Shown here one piece after another: positions 28,966 to 35,840 of a DNA stretch of 64,000 nucleotides; position 1 is the first letter of the stretch; the number at the start of each line of letters is the position of its first letter. The translations under genes were made by a program, and so were the position numbers. The notes beneath the pieces are model-generated. The model did not search any database. It saw nothing but the letters and a program-made list of their open reading frames with translations, and was not told where the DNA came from. Source of the stretch: a phage. The DNA is taken from sequence record NC_100372.1. One strand, 5' to 3'.

Positions 28966-29042
28966 TGGTCTCCACGGAGTGATTCGAACACTCGACCTCC
29001 TGATCCCAAATCAGGCGCTCTACCAAGCTGAGCTACGCGGAG
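28966..29042 (-). tRNA. tRNA-Pro (anticodon TGG), CCA encoded
   Basis: Manual fold: acceptor CTCCGCG/CGTGGAG (one G-T), D arm GCTC/GAGC, anticodon stem CCTGA/TCAGG with loop TTTGGGA, T arm GAGTG-TTCGAAT-CACTC, 3' ACCA. Confidence 0.75.
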
Positions 29043-29053
29043 TATTTATTATT

Positions 29054-29128
29054 TGGTGGCCCTGGGTGGAATTGAACCACCGTCTGGCGATTATGAGTCG
29101 CTTGCTTGAACCTTCCAGCTACAGGGCC
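29054..29128 (-). tRNA. tRNA-Met (anticodon CAT; initiator, elongator or Ile2-type undetermined), CCA encoded
   Basis: Manual fold: acceptor GGCCCTG/CAGGGCC, anticodon loop CTCATAA, T loop TTCAATT, 3' ACCA. Confidence 0.7.
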
Positions 29129-29129
29129 A

Positions 29130-29205
29130 TGGTGCTGATGGCAGGACTTGAACCTGCAACCTATTGATTACAAATCAATTGCACTGCCAATTGTGCTACA
29201 TCAGC
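29130..29205 (-). tRNA. tRNA-Thr (anticodon TGT), CCA encoded
   Basis: Manual fold: acceptor GCTGATG/CATCAGC, anticodon stem ATTGA/TCAAT with loop TTTGTAA, T arm GCAGG-TTCAAGT-CCTGC; 1 nt after tRNA-Met. Confidence 0.75.
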
Positions 29206-29211
29206 AAAAGG

Positions 29212-29308
29212 TGCTAGGTGATGGAATCGAACCACCTATGTATTCAACGACTACCTCGTCTATTTTCAGGATTAAAAATCCTCGCCCTTGCCAAAGGGCT
29301 TACCTAGC
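29212..29308 (-). ncRNA. atypical 97-nt tRNA-like element (possible Lys-UUU-type anticodon loop; not a canonical fold)
   Basis: Perfect 7-bp acceptor GCTAGGT/ACCTAGC, D arm GCCC-TTTGGCAA-GGGC, T arm GGTGG-TTCGATT-CCATC, but the central region is two short hairpins (AGGATTTTTAATCCT and GACGAGGTAGTCGTT), about 31 nt between anticodon-like hairpin and T stem; A at position 8; 3' end ACCT not CCA. Confidence 0.4.
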
Positions 29309-29406
29309 GCAATATGTTGACCATGTGGCTAGTCGGCGATGACGACTGTAACATTTGATAATCCGGTTCTGCTTCCGGCTTTCGCTTAATTACAAGGTCA
29401 ACAATG

Positions 29407-29497
29407 TGGCGGAGAGTAATGGAATCGAACCATCATCGAGTCATCCTCAACGGGACGGTTTTCAAGACCGCTTGAGCACCATTGCTCCCTACCCTCC
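29407..29497 (-). tRNA. tRNA-Ser (anticodon TGA), type II with long variable arm, CCA encoded
   Basis: Manual fold: acceptor GGAGGGT/ACTCTCC (one G-T), anticodon stem GCGGT/ACCGT with loop CTTGAAA, variable arm about 17 nt, T arm GATGG-TTCGATT-CCATT, 3' GCCA. Confidence 0.7.
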
Positions 29498-29611
29498 TTT
29501 ATAAATTACACTGATAATGACACTGATTTTCGAGCAGTTAGTGACTAGTATAAACGACGATAAATATCAATGTCATTATCTGTATGATTTATGCATTTAA
29601 AAATATAAATT

Positions 29612-29698
29612 TGGTGGGGAGTGGTGGAGTCGAACCACCCGAGTCGCAATGACAATAGATTTACAGTCTACACCGCTACCTCTACGGGATAACTCCCC
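29612..29698 (-). tRNA. tRNA-Tyr (anticodon GTA), long variable arm, CCA encoded
   Basis: Manual fold: acceptor GGGGAGT/ACTCCCC, anticodon stem GTAGA/TCTAT with loop CTGTAAA, T arm GGTGG-TTCGACT-CCACC, 3' ACCA. Confidence 0.7.
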
Positions 29699-29702
29699 AA
29701 TT

Positions 29703-29777
29703 TGGCACCCCGTACTGGACTCGAACCAGTGTCAACGGCTTAGAAGGCCGCTGCTTTATCCACTAAGCTAACAGGGC
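29703..29777 (-). tRNA. tRNA-Arg (anticodon TCT), CCA encoded
   Basis: Manual fold: acceptor GCCCTGT/ACGGGGT (two G-T), D arm GCTT/AAGC, anticodon stem GCGGC/GCCGT with loop CTTCTAA, T arm ACTGG-TTCGAGT-CCAGT, 3' GCCA. Confidence 0.7.
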
Positions 29778-29835: not shown

Positions 29836-29864
29836 ATATTACACTGTTAGGCAAAGTTTGTCAA
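29836..29864 (-). promoter_or_regulatory. consensus sigma70-type promoter for the tRNA operon
   Basis: Minus strand TTGACA (29864-29859), 17-nt spacer, TAATAT (29841-29836); about 60 nt upstream of tRNA-Arg 5' end. Confidence 0.6.
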
Positions 29865-32714: not shown

Positions 32715-33269
32715 TTACTCCCCGCTGTCAATAGCAAGACTCATTGCAATACGGTATGCCTCTTCTAATGGTAAGAGTCTCCCCCACACATCCCAACCGA
32801 CATCAAACTGCCTGCCAAACAACTGCTGTGTGGTTCCGTGAGCATGACCGAACAGTTGGACTGATCCGTGAGGCTTTCTGTTCCACTTTGCAAACTGGTA
32901 ATGGCTCATACAGATCAAATTCTTGTTGTGGCGAAGCTCGTAATAATCTACAACCTCATGACCGAACTCTTTCATAATTCTGACAGTCGTCCTTGTGTCA
33001 TGGTTACCACGAACAAGAATAATATGTCCGTTCAACATATTTAGAACATCTGGAAGCAATTTGTTGATATTCTTATCATTAGTGCACGCAATATCCCCCA
33101 AGTGAAACACAGTGTCTGCAGGTGACACAACAGAGTTCCACTTGGTGATGATTCCCGCATTCATACTGTCAAGATTGTGATCATACTGAGATCTGTGTTT
33201 TTGACATGAGTCGAACTCCATTACCCGCTGGTGGAGAAAGTGTGTGTCGCTTGTTACAAAGTATTTCAT
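32715..33269 (-). CDS. calcineurin-like metallophosphoesterase (candidate RNA 3'-phosphatase)
   Basis: Start set at ATG 33269 with RBS GAGGAA; motifs SDTHF (DxH), GDIA (GDxx), VRGNHD (GNHD), GHAHG (GHxH). Confidence 0.7.
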   Translation of the reverse strand: MKYFVTSDTHFLHQRVMEFDSCQKHRSQYDHNLDSMNAGIITKWNSVVSPADTVFHLGDIACTNDKNINKLLPDVLNMLNGHIILVRGNHDTRTTVRIMKEFGHEVVDYYELRHNKNLICMSHYQFAKWNRKPHGSVQLFGHAHGTTQQLFGRQFDVGWDVWGRLLPLEEAYRIAMSLAIDSGE

Positions 33270-33276
33270 ACATTCC

Positions 33277-33687
33277 TCATTTAAGTTTAATGCAGTTTTT
33301 AAGCTGGCGTTCCATACGATCCACAACCCTGTCTGGAACATCATGAATGCTTTTATTACCATGGCGGTTTTCAACCACGATCACGGTATAACTATATCCA
33401 TGACTGATCGCCATGTCAATATATTCTTGCACATATTTTTCTTTTGTAAACGTATTACTTACCACGATACGGTCGTAGCCCATACGCATCATATCTTCTA
33501 CGTTATCTTTGCACCATTTTGCTGCAAGTGTTACTTTACTTGCATCCCAATTGTAATTGCCGTCATCGTCGTACCAGAACATATCGTTCTCAAAATGTGG
33601 ATACAGACCTTCTAAAGATAGCGCATTTGCCAGTGTTGATTTGCCAGACCCTGGTAGACCACGCACGATATATAGCATTTTAGACAT
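33277..33687 (-). CDS. P-loop kinase, polynucleotide 5'-kinase-like
   Basis: Start set at ATG 33687 with RBS GGAGAG; Walker A GLPGSGKST at N-terminus; 136 aa; 7 nt upstream of the phosphoesterase gene. Confidence 0.55.
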   Translation of the reverse strand: MSKMLYIVRGLPGSGKSTLANALSLEGLYPHFENDMFWYDDDGNYNWDASKVTLAAKWCKDNVEDMMRMGYDRIVVSNTFTKEKYVQEYIDMAISHGYSYTVIVVENRHGNKSIHDVPDRVVDRMERQLKNCIKLK

Positions 33688-33715
33688 AGTAACTCTCCGT
33701 TTTAATTTTAATGAT

Positions 33716-33744
33716 AGTATACCTAACTGTTTTGTTAATTTCAA
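33716..33744 (-). promoter_or_regulatory. sigma70-like promoter for kinase/phosphoesterase operon
   Basis: Minus strand TTGAAA (33744-33739), 17-nt spacer, TATACT (33721-33716); a plus-strand TTGACA at 33748-33753 suggests a divergent promoter for the ligase operon, but its -10 is weak. Confidence 0.45.
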
Positions 33745-33787
33745 GTGTTGACACCAAGTTATTTGTGTGGCAGGATAAAGGGACAAA

Positions 33788-34723
33788 ATGACAAATGAGG
33801 AATGTATAATGAAGTATTTTAATGCAGACAACCTAGTTGACAAAGGTCTTGTAACCAGCAGATATTACCCGGATCTTGGGTTAAAGATCTATAAATATGC
33901 CAGAAAAGTATTCTACAACAATTTATGGCATTTGTCTCCTCGTTTGCTGGAGTGCCGAGGCATTGTTGTCGGTAATGAAGGAAATGTTGTGGCATGGCCC
34001 TTCACAAAAGTGTTTAACTTGGGAGAAAATTCCACCAACCTGCCTGACAATAAACTTGTGACGGCGGTAGAGAAAAAGAACGGATTCCTTGGTGTGGTAT
34101 CATCTCATAAAGGTGAACTATTGTTCTCAACAACCGGGTCTCTTGATTCTCCATATTGTAACCTCGCAAAGGAAACAATCCAGGAGCAATGTGGTAATTT
34201 AGATCTTATCAAGAGGGTTATGGGCCATGAAAACATGACATTCATGTTTGAAATTTGTCACCCTTCAGATCCGCATATTGTTCAGGAAGATCATGGCGCA
34301 TATTTGATAGGTTGCAGATATAATGATTCTGGAATAATGCTACCAGAAGCAGCTTTAGATGGGATTGCCAAATACCTTGGTGCAAAACGTCCTCACACTG
34401 TGCGTGAAATTCCGTTCAGCTATGCAAAAGAATTAGCTGCAGAAACAAGAGGTGAAGGGTATATGATTCGTAAGCCTTACTACCCTTATGATCTGCAGCT
34501 GAAGATCAAGTCTCCATACTATTTGGCACGGAAGGCCGTAATGAGGGGTAAAGCTTGGAAGATTTGGGATGATGATATCTTTAAACGTGTTGACGAAGAG
34601 TTTTACGGCATGGTAAACTTCATTCGTAGAAACTACACAGAAGATGTGTGGAATTGCCTCCTGGAGCAGGAACGACGTGAGATACTTGACTGCTATTTCC
34701 ACAACGAGGACTATATGCAATGA
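33788..34723 (+). CDS. RNA ligase, Rnl2-like nucleotidyltransferase
   Basis: 311 aa; motif I EKKNGF (KxNG, cf. T4 Rnl2 KxHG), motif IV EGYMIRKP (cf. EGYVLKP), motif V LKIKS; alternative start at ATG 33809 with RBS GAGGAA. Confidence 0.6.
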   Translation: MTNEECIMKYFNADNLVDKGLVTSRYYPDLGLKIYKYARKVFYNNLWHLSPRLLECRGIVVGNEGNVVAWPFTKVFNLGENSTNLPDNKLVTAVEKKNGFLGVVSSHKGELLFSTTGSLDSPYCNLAKETIQEQCGNLDLIKRVMGHENMTFMFEICHPSDPHIVQEDHGAYLIGCRYNDSGIMLPEAALDGIAKYLGAKRPHTVREIPFSYAKELAAETRGEGYMIRKPYYPYDLQLKIKSPYYLARKAVMRGKAWKIWDDDIFKRVDEEFYGMVNFIRRNYTEDVWNCLLEQERREILDCYFHNEDYMQ

Positions 34724-35070
34724 AGAAGTTGATTGTGTGGCTGGATGACTTGAGAGATCCGTCAAATTATGGGCTCCCAGATGCTCTTTGGCTAAAGAAT
34801 TCCTCTGAGTTTATGGATTTTATTAACGATAAGGGAAAGCTCTACAGGCGCGTTTCTGAGTGGCACATGGACAACGACCTTGGAGAGGTATTTGAAGGGT
34901 ACGATTGCCTATCTATGCTGGAGGAAAAATTTGTATTTGGTAAGCCTCCTGTAGTTGACAACGTGAAGATTTTCGTGCATACTTCTAACCCATCAGCTGC
35001 TCGTAAATTCATGCTTGCTGCTGACTCGTTTAAAAAGTTTGGAATAGAGATTAAACAAAACATCTACTGA
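34720..35070 (+). CDS. hypothetical protein translationally coupled between RNA ligase and sirtuin
   Basis: 116 aa; start overlaps ligase stop (ATGA); no motif recognised. Confidence 0.4.
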   Translation: MKKLIVWLDDLRDPSNYGLPDALWLKNSSEFMDFINDKGKLYRRVSEWHMDNDLGEVFEGYDCLSMLEEKFVFGKPPVVDNVKIFVHTSNPSAARKFMLAADSFKKFGIEIKQNIY

Positions 35071-35078
35071 GGACACTT

Positions 35079-35840
35079 ATGCGACGACTGATCATTATCT
35101 CCGGTGCTGGTTTGAGCGCTGAATCTGGTATCCCAACTTTCCGATCTGGTGGCACTGCAATGTGGGAGAATTTCAGCATCGATGAGGTGTGTAACATCCA
35201 CACCTTTGCCAAGAACTATTATAAGGTTCATGACTTTTACAATGCACGGCGTGTAGCTCTGGGCAGTGTTGATCCTAACCTTGCACATCTCCGGATCGCT
35301 GAATGGTATTCCCGCTGGTCTGGTCGCGTGATCAACCTGACAACCAATGTAGATGATTTGCTGGAGCGTGCTGGTGTAAAACATGAAGATATTTTACATG
35401 TCCACGGATATTTGCCAGAAATAGTCTACGAGGATGATGAAGGGAGTAACGTCATTAAAGACATTGGATACTCTGAGGTAGATGCAAGCAAGTATACTTG
35501 GGTTAAGCCTAATGTCGTGTTCTTCGGAGAAGTAGCTCCAAAGTATACAGACATGTATGACCTGTTGACTTCTCTGACGAGCAATGATATGGTTATCCTT
35601 GTAGGGTGCTCCAACACAGTTATCAATTTTAACTGGGAGCTATTCCCTGCCTGTAATAAGGGGACCAAACTGCTGATCGTTAACAAATACGACTCACAGC
35701 ATTTAGGGGAGAATGGCATTTCACGTAGTGACATTTACCAGTATGAGGATCGCGGCATCCCAGTTTGGTTTAACGGGGCTGTTGACGCTTTCTCTGATAA
35801 AACATTCATTGACATCGTAGAAAACTTTATGGAACTGTAA
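35079..35840 (+). CDS. Sir2-family NAD-dependent deacylase / ADP-ribosyltransferase homologue lacking the zinc-binding cysteines
   Basis: 253 aa; GAGLSAESGIPTFRSGG NAD-binding motif, FYNARR, PNLAHL, TTNVDDLLERAG, catalytic HG (HVHGYL), VVFFGE, all paralleling E. coli CobB; no CxxC pairs in the expected zinc-ribbon region. Confidence 0.8.
   Translation: MRRLIIISGAGLSAESGIPTFRSGGTAMWENFSIDEVCNIHTFAKNYYKVHDFYNARRVALGSVDPNLAHLRIAEWYSRWSGRVINLTTNVDDLLERAGVKHEDILHVHGYLPEIVYEDDEGSNVIKDIGYSEVDASKYTWVKPNVVFFGEVAPKYTDMYDLLTSLTSNDMVILVGCSNTVINFNWELFPACNKGTKLLIVNKYDSQHLGENGISRSDIYQYEDRGIPVWFNGAVDAFSDKTFIDIVENFMEL

Follow-up and report, generated by a model that had tools for sequence, protein, structure and literature searches.

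In the tRNA operon of a 64,000-nt stretch of phage DNA (NC_100372.1; hereafter the window) lies a gene for a tRNA-shaped RNA, labelled X here, that carries a lysine-like UUUUUAA loop on an unusual body. The question raised by this locus is whether X is a lysine tRNA, a decaying gene or an RNA of another kind. X is probably a tRNA look-alike and not an ordinary lysine tRNA: comparison of its homologues presents it as a conserved, phage-only RNA of predicted L shape, in which the anticodon arm is non-canonical and the variable region is modular and expanded. The region of the operon is 100% identical across 951 bases to Escherichia phage EduardKellenberger (Bas59; Vequintavirus).

Architecture of X

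The operon reads Arg(UCU), Tyr(GUA), Ser(UGA), a 98-nt structured spacer, X, Thr(UGU), Met/Ile(CAU) and Pro(UGG), such that X is gene four of seven; the six neighbours are ordinary tRNAs by ARAGORN. A first-pass annotation had noted a 97-nt tRNA-like element in this operon, and the element is recovered on the minus strand (29308->29212, 97 nt) by ARAGORN ('tRNA-??? (atcc)', 29210-29308), by the Rfam tRNA model (RF00005; 35.5 bits for X, above the gathering score of 29, and 60-77 bits for the neighbours) and by the minimum-energy fold, which is a cloverleaf with an extra hairpin (-34.2 kcal/mol, z = -3.7, with 0 of 200 shuffles as good). The Rfam alignment takes UUU as the anticodon and places a 26-nt insertion in the variable region. 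Covariance model R1, built for the family, scores 102.9 bits at 29209-29308. Neither ARAGORN nor Rfam folds X as an ordinary tRNA of another identity, in keeping with its description as atypical. The operon and the parts of X are:

28966-29777, minus strand: tRNA operon containing X (ARAGORN, Rfam)
29212-29308, minus strand: X, from G1 (29308) to discriminator A73 (29212), 97 nt (sequence, ARAGORN, Rfam, fold and covariance model R1)
29302-29308, minus strand: 5' strand of the acceptor stem, GCUAGGU, pairing with ACCUAGC at 29213-29219 (7/7 pairs)
29301-29300, minus strand: A8 and A9, 5' of the D arm (sequence)
29284-29299, minus strand: D arm GCCC-UUUGGCAA-GGGC, or alternatively a 6-bp stem with a 4-nt loop (D-stem covariation)
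29267-29283, minus strand: shortened anticodon arm G-AGGA-UUUUUAA-UCCU-G, with the alternative pairing AGGAU-UUUUA-AUCCU (sequence, Rfam)
29272-29278, minus strand: anticodon-arm loop UUUUUAA, with the UUU triplet at 29274-29276
29261-29266, minus strand: A-rich 5' linker AAAAUA of the variable region (GAAAA in nearly all homologues, GUAAA in L039)
29246-29260, minus strand: variable-arm hairpin GACGA-GGUAG-UCGUU (a hairpin in every homologue; A-U to G-C compensatory in Av-05)
29237-29245, minus strand: 3' linker GAAUACAUA (AUACAUA conserved; AUACGAAAUA in the independently found phage muut)
29220-29236, minus strand: T arm GGUGG-UUCGAUU-CCAUC (Rfam, covariation)
29209-29211, minus strand: 3' tail CCU, an incompletely encoded CCA (sequence; U73-CCA in most other genera)

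The conservation of the linkers (GAAAA and AUACAUA) is partly built in by the search patterns with which the homologues were collected.

The seven perfect acceptor pairs and the canonical D and T arms of the earlier description are present (GCUAGGU/ACCUAGC), as are A8 and a 3' end of ACCT in place of CCA; the six neighbours all end in CCA (Arg GUGCCA, Tyr CCACCA, Ser CGCCA, Thr GCACCA, Met CCACCA and Pro AGACCA). The distance from the first hairpin to the T stem, given earlier as about 31 nt, is 31 nt by count (G AAAAUA GACGA-GGUAG-UCGUU GAAUACAUA). The proposal that the anticodon region has been replaced by two hairpins is not upheld, as the two hairpins are an anticodon arm of reduced length and an oversized variable arm, respectively. 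The D stem can extend to 6 bp with a 4-nt loop (UU/AA; minimum-energy fold), the extra pairs being invariant and covariation uninformative.

The anticodon arm of the window copy holds 15 nt between its flanking G's, compared to 17 in a canonical tRNA, and has two possible pairings, one of 4 bp with a G.G mismatch and one of 5 bp closing a 5-nt loop. The canonical combination (5-bp stem, 7-nt loop, U33, a purine at 37, nucleotide 26) is absent. The variable region of tRNAs spans 4-5 nt in class I, and in class II forms an arm of about 13-21 nt with linkers of 1-2 nt. That of X is 31 nt long, reaches about 41 nt in homologues, has linkers of 6-9 nt and lies outside both ranges.

Readings of X other than as a tRNA-like RNA were also considered. 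The protein-coding frames crossing X are solely spurious ORFs of 24-64 aa that run through the tRNA genes, and length differences within the family are not multiples of three; a protein-coding reading was therefore dropped. ARAGORN finds no tmRNA, Rfam gives a weak tmRNA match elsewhere only, and X has no credible tag ORF.

A phage-borne family

About 30 distinct homologues of X were recovered by BLAST, exact-pattern scans and model R1. They occur in Vequintavirus, Avunavirus (Av-05), Seunavirus (PVP-SE1, 4MG, SSE-121, KE22, EspYZU15 and FENT2), Mydovirus (BIS47, Mydo, DP, NDO71 and Ro1), the Erwinia phages pEp_SNUABM_01 and Hena1 (which we take to be the genus Henunavirus), phage muut of Justusliebigvirus (subfamily Stephanstirmvirinae) and Klebsiella-phage-like metagenomic contigs. 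X is always within a tRNA cluster, at one copy per genome, and R1 separates its members (79-117 bits) from ordinary tRNAs (28.6 bits at most). Several homologues were collected by exact patterns in which the T loop, the 3' linker and portions of the D and anticodon arms were fixed; the BLAST-derived copies and muut, which was reached via its NAMPT gene and the covariance model, are free of this bias.

X had no match in 185,579 bacterial and archaeal species genomes, which were scanned with two patterns, nor in 5,426 complete E. coli genomes searched by blastn. The family therefore appears phage-specific, and a bacterial or host origin of X was rejected on the same searches.

X is a new, well-defined family within the tRNA-like RNAs and non-canonical phage tRNAs that databases treat as an odd tRNA; a full-text literature search found no description of this RNA. 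ARAGORN detects X solely in Vequintavirus, with no call in the other genera, and a Seunavirus copy falls below the threshold of the Rfam tRNA model. Across more than 150 public genomes the annotation is inconsistent, with X entered as tRNA-Lys (AAA), 'tRNA-Lys, isotype prediction inconsistent', tRNA-OTHER, tRNA-TERM, 'tRNA-???(atcc)' or a hypothetical protein, or left unannotated. Some 18 records titled 'Campylobacter phage' (MG0656xx) share 98% identity with E. coli Vequintaviruses over the tRNA operon, and their host labels are probably wrong.

Selection on the fold

Alignment A1, of 27 X sequences, has 97.9% of its cloverleaf cells paired, versus 82.8% in shuffles and 32-46% in slid controls, with 12 of its 22 pairs changed on both sides; 0 of 500 shuffles match the observed values, a statistic that overstates significance as the homologues share descent. 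Compensatory changes support all four stems. In the acceptor stem, 5 of the 7 pairs are changed on both sides over the 27 homologues and none is broken, and 3 of the 4 D-stem pairs are compensatory. The elbow pair 19-56 covaries (G19-C56 in 17 sequences, U19-A56 in 10, broken in 0), which argues for a truly L-shaped fold. The D loop UUUGGCAA accompanies the T loop UUCGAUU, and UUUGUCAA accompanies UUAGAUU.

X is conserved as well as, or better than, the real tRNAs beside it. The window and Av-05 are 91.8% identical in X, compared to 69.7% in tRNA-Thr and 75.6% in tRNA-Tyr; for the window and KE22, the X core is 82% identical and the real tRNAs 63-75%. Because of this conservation X is very unlikely to be a pseudogene. 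Two suggestions of the first-pass annotation, a tRNA with an insertion and a pseudo-tRNA, are not supported: every stem has compensatory changes, the conservation is as just described, and the architecture is kept throughout Vequintavirinae, in one phage of the Stephanstirmvirinae and in related contigs. That X is a functional conserved RNA is judged highly probable.

Two variable modules

A8 and U14 are invariant in the X family, where tRNAs have U8 and A14. The anticodon arm holds 15 nt between the flanking G's in Vequintavirus, the Erwinia phages and muut, and 16 nt in Seunavirus and Mydovirus; it forms 4 bp with a 7-nt loop and no nucleotide 26, or 5 bp with a 5-6-nt loop, and no lineage has a canonical arm. 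The loop is UUUUUAA in Vequintavirus, UUUAUAA in Avunavirus, a six-nt CAUCCA in Seunavirus and Mydovirus (with variants CAGCCA, CCACCA, CCUCCA and CUUCCA) and C/U/A-A-UCA-A-A/G with an invariant A33 in the Erwinia phages, Justusliebigvirus and related contigs. U33 is universal in tRNAs. The UCA-type loop is probably the older state, since it is present in both subfamilies. Comparison of the homologous loci thus upholds the architecture as conserved, while the Lys-like loop is a feature of Vequintavirus only and not of the family. The 3' ends are degraded in Vequintavirus, Avunavirus and Justusliebigvirus (ACCU, ACAU, UACA, CACA and UUCA); the Avunavirus X combines a UAU triplet with U73 or C73 and a degraded CCA. 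Given the short anticodon helix or wrong loop size, A33 in place of U33 and unrelated loops across lineages, X is, on balance, not expected to be a standard decoder.

Sequence change clusters in two modules, the anticodon loop (positions 33-36) and the variable-arm hairpin. FENT2, NDO71 and L047 are identical over 109 nt save loop positions 33-34. Other pairs differ inside the variable-arm hairpin only (BIS47/DP at 20 positions, BIS47/L019 at 19 and L050/L061 at 24), which points to a cassette-like swapping of the arm, bounded by conserved linkers. The variable region spans about 31-41 nt in the order G-AAAA(A)NN, hairpin, (N)AAUACAUA. An arm type with the loop GAAYUAACAGUA recurs in Mydovirus, the Erwinia phages and Stephanstirmvirinae-like contigs, and its stem changes are compensatory (GCC/GGC, GUC/GAC and AGC/GCU).

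Two tertiary contacts were considered and set aside. Kissing of the anticodon and variable-arm loops looks compensatory in several Seunaviruses (UCCA:UGGA) and in 4MG (GCCA:UGGC) but finds no complement in the phages with the GAACUAACAGUAC arm or in Vequintavirus. Pairing of one linker with the other (AUGU/ACAU) is possible in Hena1 and L051 but impossible in the window copy and FENT2.

Lysine tRNA or look-alike

The Lys-like loop claimed for the window copy is real. Its A-UUUUUAA-UC matches A-CUUUUAA-UC of E. coli lysT at 9 of 10 positions, both RNAs have A73, and they share a single word, the 8-mer UUUUAAUC. The identity elements for LysRS are the anticodon UUU and A73, and both are present in the window X. 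The two are combined solely in Vequintavirus; in almost every other genus the 3' end is U73-CCA. Of 120 phage records, 114 share an identical 33-nt anticodon-arm region, in genomes that are about 98% identical overall.

The strongest alternative to a look-alike is that the Vequintavirus X is a working, nuclease-resistant tRNA-Lys(UUU), charged by LysRS, that replaces host tRNA-Lys after it is cut, much as the T5 tRNA-Lys does against PARIS. This reading is considered unlikely but is a live rival. In its favour, X passes the Rfam tRNA threshold with UUU as anticodon, and GenBank records name it tRNA-Lys. UUU, U33, A37, A38, A31-U39 and A73 match lysT, UUU and A73 occur together in Vequintavirus only, and no other tRNA-Lys is encoded by the phage. 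X and lysT differ in the anticodon stem, also at positions 40/41 where AriB cuts, and an Rnl1-type repair cassette is nearby.

The geometry of X argues against such a tRNA. With 4 anticodon pairs, a G.G mismatch and no position 26, the helix is one layer short; the loop can be closed to 5 nt via U32-A38; and the 31-nt variable region with unpaired linkers of 6-9 nt, A8/U14 and an unencoded CCA are also out of keeping. One GenBank record states 'isotype prediction inconsistent'. Elsewhere the same body bears loops unable to decode normally (A33; 6-nt loops). In relatives, a normal tRNA-Lys(UUU) is present alongside X(UCA), and X is therefore not a tRNA-Lys by descent; likewise, the body of X has no blastn match in E. 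coli genomes, and genes of the lysT family reach at most 15.4 bits on the X model.

A related proposal, that the triplet of X completes the tRNA set of the phage, fits Vequintavirus only. It is contradicted by PVP-SE1, which has a normal Gly(UCC) beside a UCC-like X, and by Av-05-type contigs, which carry tRNA(CAU) plus X(UAU). X is thus not generally gap-filling, as the Avunavirus triplet is UAU with U73/C73 and PVP-SE1 already has Gly(UCC).

The T5 system is a published parallel for a link to defence. The AriB nuclease of PARIS cleaves the tRNA-Lys anticodon stem, and the T5 tRNA-Lys escapes by changes in its stem-loop (PMC11464382); phage tRNAs with mutated anticodon loops are also described (PMC10264068). 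Like the T5 tRNA-Lys, X is phage-encoded, has a UUU anticodon-type loop and an anticodon stem unlike that of the host at the AriB cut site, and shares a proposed link to tRNA-Lys-directed defence. By contrast, the T5 tRNA-Lys is a canonical decoding tRNA with few substitutions, while the body of X is non-canonical and the other members of its family are not Lys-like.

Other known RNAs and the remaining alternatives

X resembles the class II elongator tRNAs (RF00005) in its 7-bp acceptor, 4-bp D stem and 5-bp T stem, the GGUUCGAUUCC T loop, G18/G19, the 19-56 elbow pair, purine 37, an extra variable-region hairpin and its position in a tRNA operon. It differs in A8/U14, an anticodon arm of 15-16 nt, the lack of a conserved anticodon, a variable region of about 31-41 nt with conserved unpaired linkers of 6-9 nt on both sides, and its score (35.5 versus 60-77 bits). 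With tRNA-Sec (RF01852; selC), X has in common a possible 6-bp D stem with a 4-nt loop, the absence of nucleotide 26 and a long extra arm. The UCA-AA loop of tRNA-Sec is found in the X of Henunavirus, Justusliebigvirus and related contigs but not in the window copy, and X is unlike tRNA-Sec in its 7/5 rather than 8/5 helices, U73/A73 rather than G73, and A33.

It is improbable that X is a class II or Sec-like tRNA derivative with unusual decoding, be it UGA reading in the UCA lineages or Ser/Leu-type, anticodon-blind charging that would insert a residue other than Lys at AAA/AAG in this phage. In favour of this idea are the long variable arm and the D arm foldable as 6 bp with a 4-nt loop. The UCA copies L040, L041 and L050 best match the tRNA-Sec model, at 37.6-41.9 bits, with the D arm read as 6 bp plus 4 nt and the loop CAUCAAA against the consensus CUUCAAA; contigs L051 and L061 also have a CUA amber-suppressor tRNA. 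These scores are below the gathering score of 47, the Seunavirus copy gives 26.5 bits, the tRNA model accounts better for the window copy, and the tRNA-Ser and tRNA-Tyr of the window give similar sub-threshold scores. Together with the 7/5 helices and U73, this is why X is not filed under tRNA-Sec. The A73 or U73 in place of G73, A33 in place of U33, long floppy linkers of the variable arm and lack of a UCA triplet in the window copy further speak against decoding of this kind.

An equally improbable alternative is that X has no function of its own, being either a tRNA gene in decay or a stretch kept only for processing or spacing within the operon transcript. Degradation of CCA in three genera (Vequintavirus, Avunavirus and Justusliebigvirus), loss of X in phage V18 and O157 typing phage 4, and the presence of further aberrant tRNA-like genes in the same clusters would fit. 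Decay does not account for compensatory changes in all stems and the tertiary pair, for conservation equal to or above that of real tRNAs, or for persistence over Vequintavirinae, one Stephanstirmvirinae phage and related contigs, and a punctuation role needs no elbow pair, A37 or U73-CCA.

Least probable is a Y-RNA-like or protein-scaffolding RNA, whose tRNA-like module would recruit a protein of the phage or the host, much as YrlA recruits Ro60/Rsr. The conserved single-stranded linkers do resemble a binding site, and beside the tRNA cluster of a related Klebsiella phage is a gene for a DUF2828/DUF7788 protein that weakly matches Ro60-vWA, but that phage has no X, the protein has no homologue in the 64-kb window or the other loci, and X has neither an Rfam YrlA match nor a Ro-binding helix. 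The resemblance to the bacterial Y RNA YrlA (RF02553) is confined to the tRNA-mimicking acceptor/T/D module, and the window has no Ro60 gene. The protein in question, 476 aa with DUF7788 and DUF2828, is encoded in Klebsiella phage phi1_175008 (L067 9714-11144), where it adjoins tRNA-Arg and is annotated 'RNA-binding protein'.

Two further RNAs offer partial precedents. The Bacillus cereus tRNA-Other is a chromosomal pseudo-tRNA that is not used in translation and has a regulatory effect revealed by deletion (PMC3399842). X is similar in its 'tRNA-OTHER' annotation, tRNA-like fold and probable non-translational role, but the two have no sequence relationship, and the function of the chromosomal RNA is established by deletion whereas X is known from sequence. 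Species 1 and 2 of the phage T4 tRNA cluster (rnaC/rnaD) are reportedly small, stable non-tRNA RNAs that are co-transcribed and co-processed with the phage tRNAs and are dispensable in the laboratory; they have no established sequence or cloverleaf correspondence to X.

A proposed role for X

The reading preferred here, at slightly less than even odds, is that X is a functional, phage-specific, tRNA-shaped small RNA that is neither an ordinary decoder nor a decaying gene and may serve as bait or competitor. X would be cut from the operon transcript by tRNA-processing enzymes (RNase P, 3' trimming and CCA repair) and fold into an L shape. Its body could then engage tRNA-binding proteins, while its two changeable modules present look-alikes of host tRNA features. 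The Vequintavirus X would copy tRNA-Lys(UUU) via the loop UUUUUAA, A31-U39, U36-A37-A38 and A73, and may act as a bait, competitor or non-cleavable ligand for tRNA-Lys-directed enzymes such as anticodon nucleases, beside the Pnk, phosphoesterase and Rnl1-type repair enzymes of the phage. The anticodon arm is the target of PrrC, RloC and PARIS, and the variable arm that of PtuAB of Septu and of Retron-Eco7; the tRNA regions attacked by nucleases are therefore the same two that are hypervariable in X. The repair cassette and the variation pattern fit the idea of a decoy or a resistant variant. A decoy-type role in counter-defence is, by itself, a possibility of modest weight. More speculative still is the full proposal of an undescribed RNA class, in which a frozen tRNA-shaped chassis displays two exchangeable bait modules that titrate or block nucleases, the modules are re-assorted by recombination between co-infecting phages, and the Vequintavirus copy is a tRNA-Lys mimic working with the Pnk/phosphoesterase/Rnl1 enzymes.

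Several observations weigh against the preferred reading. ARAGORN finds no other tRNA-Lys in the window phage, and with U33, UUU, A37 and A73 in a possible 7-nt loop, real decoding is feasible in this phage. The UAU triplet, U73/C73 and degraded CCA of Avunavirus may reflect drift of the loop, and the variation of the loop and variable arm could stem from lack of constraint and recombination instead of an arms race. The statistics are also weaker than they appear, given the shared descent behind the shuffle comparison and the partly imposed invariance of the motifs required by the search patterns (linkers and T loop). Finally, X is deleted in phage V18 and O157 typing phage 4 through Tyr/X chimeras and, on these genomes, is dispensable in at least two isolates. 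The chimeras (V18, L011 1471-1543; O157 typing phage 4, L012 about 1437-1531) join the 5' part of tRNA-Tyr to the 3' part of X with mismatched acceptor halves, Tyr, Ser and X being deleted; as judged from this structure, they arose by recombination between tRNA genes.

Genomic neighbourhood

Two promoter matches and an RNA-repair-like cassette of T4 type accompany the operon; the cassette lies about 3.4 kb from the operon and is context outside X:

29836-29864, minus strand: sigma-70-like promoter match TTGACA-17-TAATAT upstream of the tRNA operon (consensus match alone)
29547-29576, minus strand: second, weaker sigma-70-like promoter match (consensus match alone)
32715-33374, minus strand: metallophosphoesterase, calcineurin-type (Pfam, PHROG)
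33277-33843, minus strand: P-loop kinase, AAA_33/zeta-toxin-like (Pfam, PHROG)
33788-34723, plus strand: Rnl1-type RNA ligase (Pfam, PHROG)
34720-35070, plus strand: cyclic-phosphate-processing receiver domain, cREC_REC (Pfam, PHROG)
35079-35840, plus strand: SIR2-family protein, after the cassette (Pfam, PHROG)

In T4, Pnkp and Rnl1 repair tRNA-Lys that has been cleaved by the anticodon nuclease PrrC. PHROG and Pfam scans of the neighbouring proteins revealed no X-specific partner.

The 98-nt spacer between Ser and X (29309-29406, minus strand) is near-identical among Vequintavirus copies. It folds as a multi-branch structure closed by the 8-bp stem UGUUGACC/GGUCAACA (-24.2 kcal/mol, z = -2.2), with the hairpins CCGG-AAGCAGAA-CCGG and AGUCG-UCAUCGC-CGACU, and may be a decayed tRNA or another small RNA. 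A likeness of its hairpin to the variable arm of tRNA-Tyr failed in a comparison with tyrU, with which the longest word in common is 6 nt.

The tRNA clusters of relatives carry further unusual genes. Aberrant tRNA-like genes of Seunavirus and Mydovirus (L004 1419-1494; L005 1418-1494; L009/L010 1351-1425; L064 9959-10044) include a tRNA-Ile(GAU)-like gene just 5' of X with odd loops (ACGAUUC with C33; an 8-nt 'agat'; a 6-nt 'ga'), and PVP-SE1 additionally has a 'tRNA-???(ggca)'. A CUA-anticodon tRNA (amber suppressor; 'Pyl' in ARAGORN) is clustered with X(UCA) in Klebsiella Stephanstirmvirinae-like contigs (L051 7862-7934, L061 2791-2865). In Seunavirus, a conserved stretch of about 190 nt 3' of X (GUGCAUUAGCUCAGAUUAUUUGA...CACGGACUGAUCAUCUGUG...; L004 about 1605-1796, L005, L007) looks like another degenerate tRNA-like RNA. 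In PVP-SE1 the sequence diverges right after X, and the gap of about 860 nt to tRNA-Leu (L008 about 1540-2400) is consistent with an insertion.

Next to the Seunavirus and Mydovirus tRNA clusters is a 484-aa ORF (L042 3640-5094, minus strand; homologues in L019, L020, L023, L046, L057, L064 and L065) that has no Pfam hit and a weak PHROG match to nucleotidyltransferases and is absent from the 64-kb window. Stephanstirmvirinae-like phages have genes for NAD salvage, a ribose-phosphate pyrophosphokinase and a nicotinamide phosphoribosyltransferase, directly upstream of the tRNA cluster, which fits a counter-defence neighbourhood:

L039 1530-4691: NAD-salvage gene pair, upstream of the tRNA cluster
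L051 2167-5100: NAD-salvage gene pair, upstream of the tRNA cluster
L066 4036-6734: NAD-salvage gene pair, upstream of the tRNA cluster

Significance

Phage tRNAs have recently emerged as weapons against bacterial immunity that cleaves tRNA. To our knowledge, all characterised counter-defence phage tRNAs are ordinary tRNAs with few protective substitutions. X has apparently abandoned normal anticodon geometry, kept the features by which tRNAs are recognised, and varies where immune nucleases attack. Bas59 and its relatives in the BASEL collection carry X, as do phages that are therapeutic candidates, and deletions are easy to make in these phages. Should X prove to act as a decoy or inhibitor, it would represent an anti-defence factor made of RNA and of new design.

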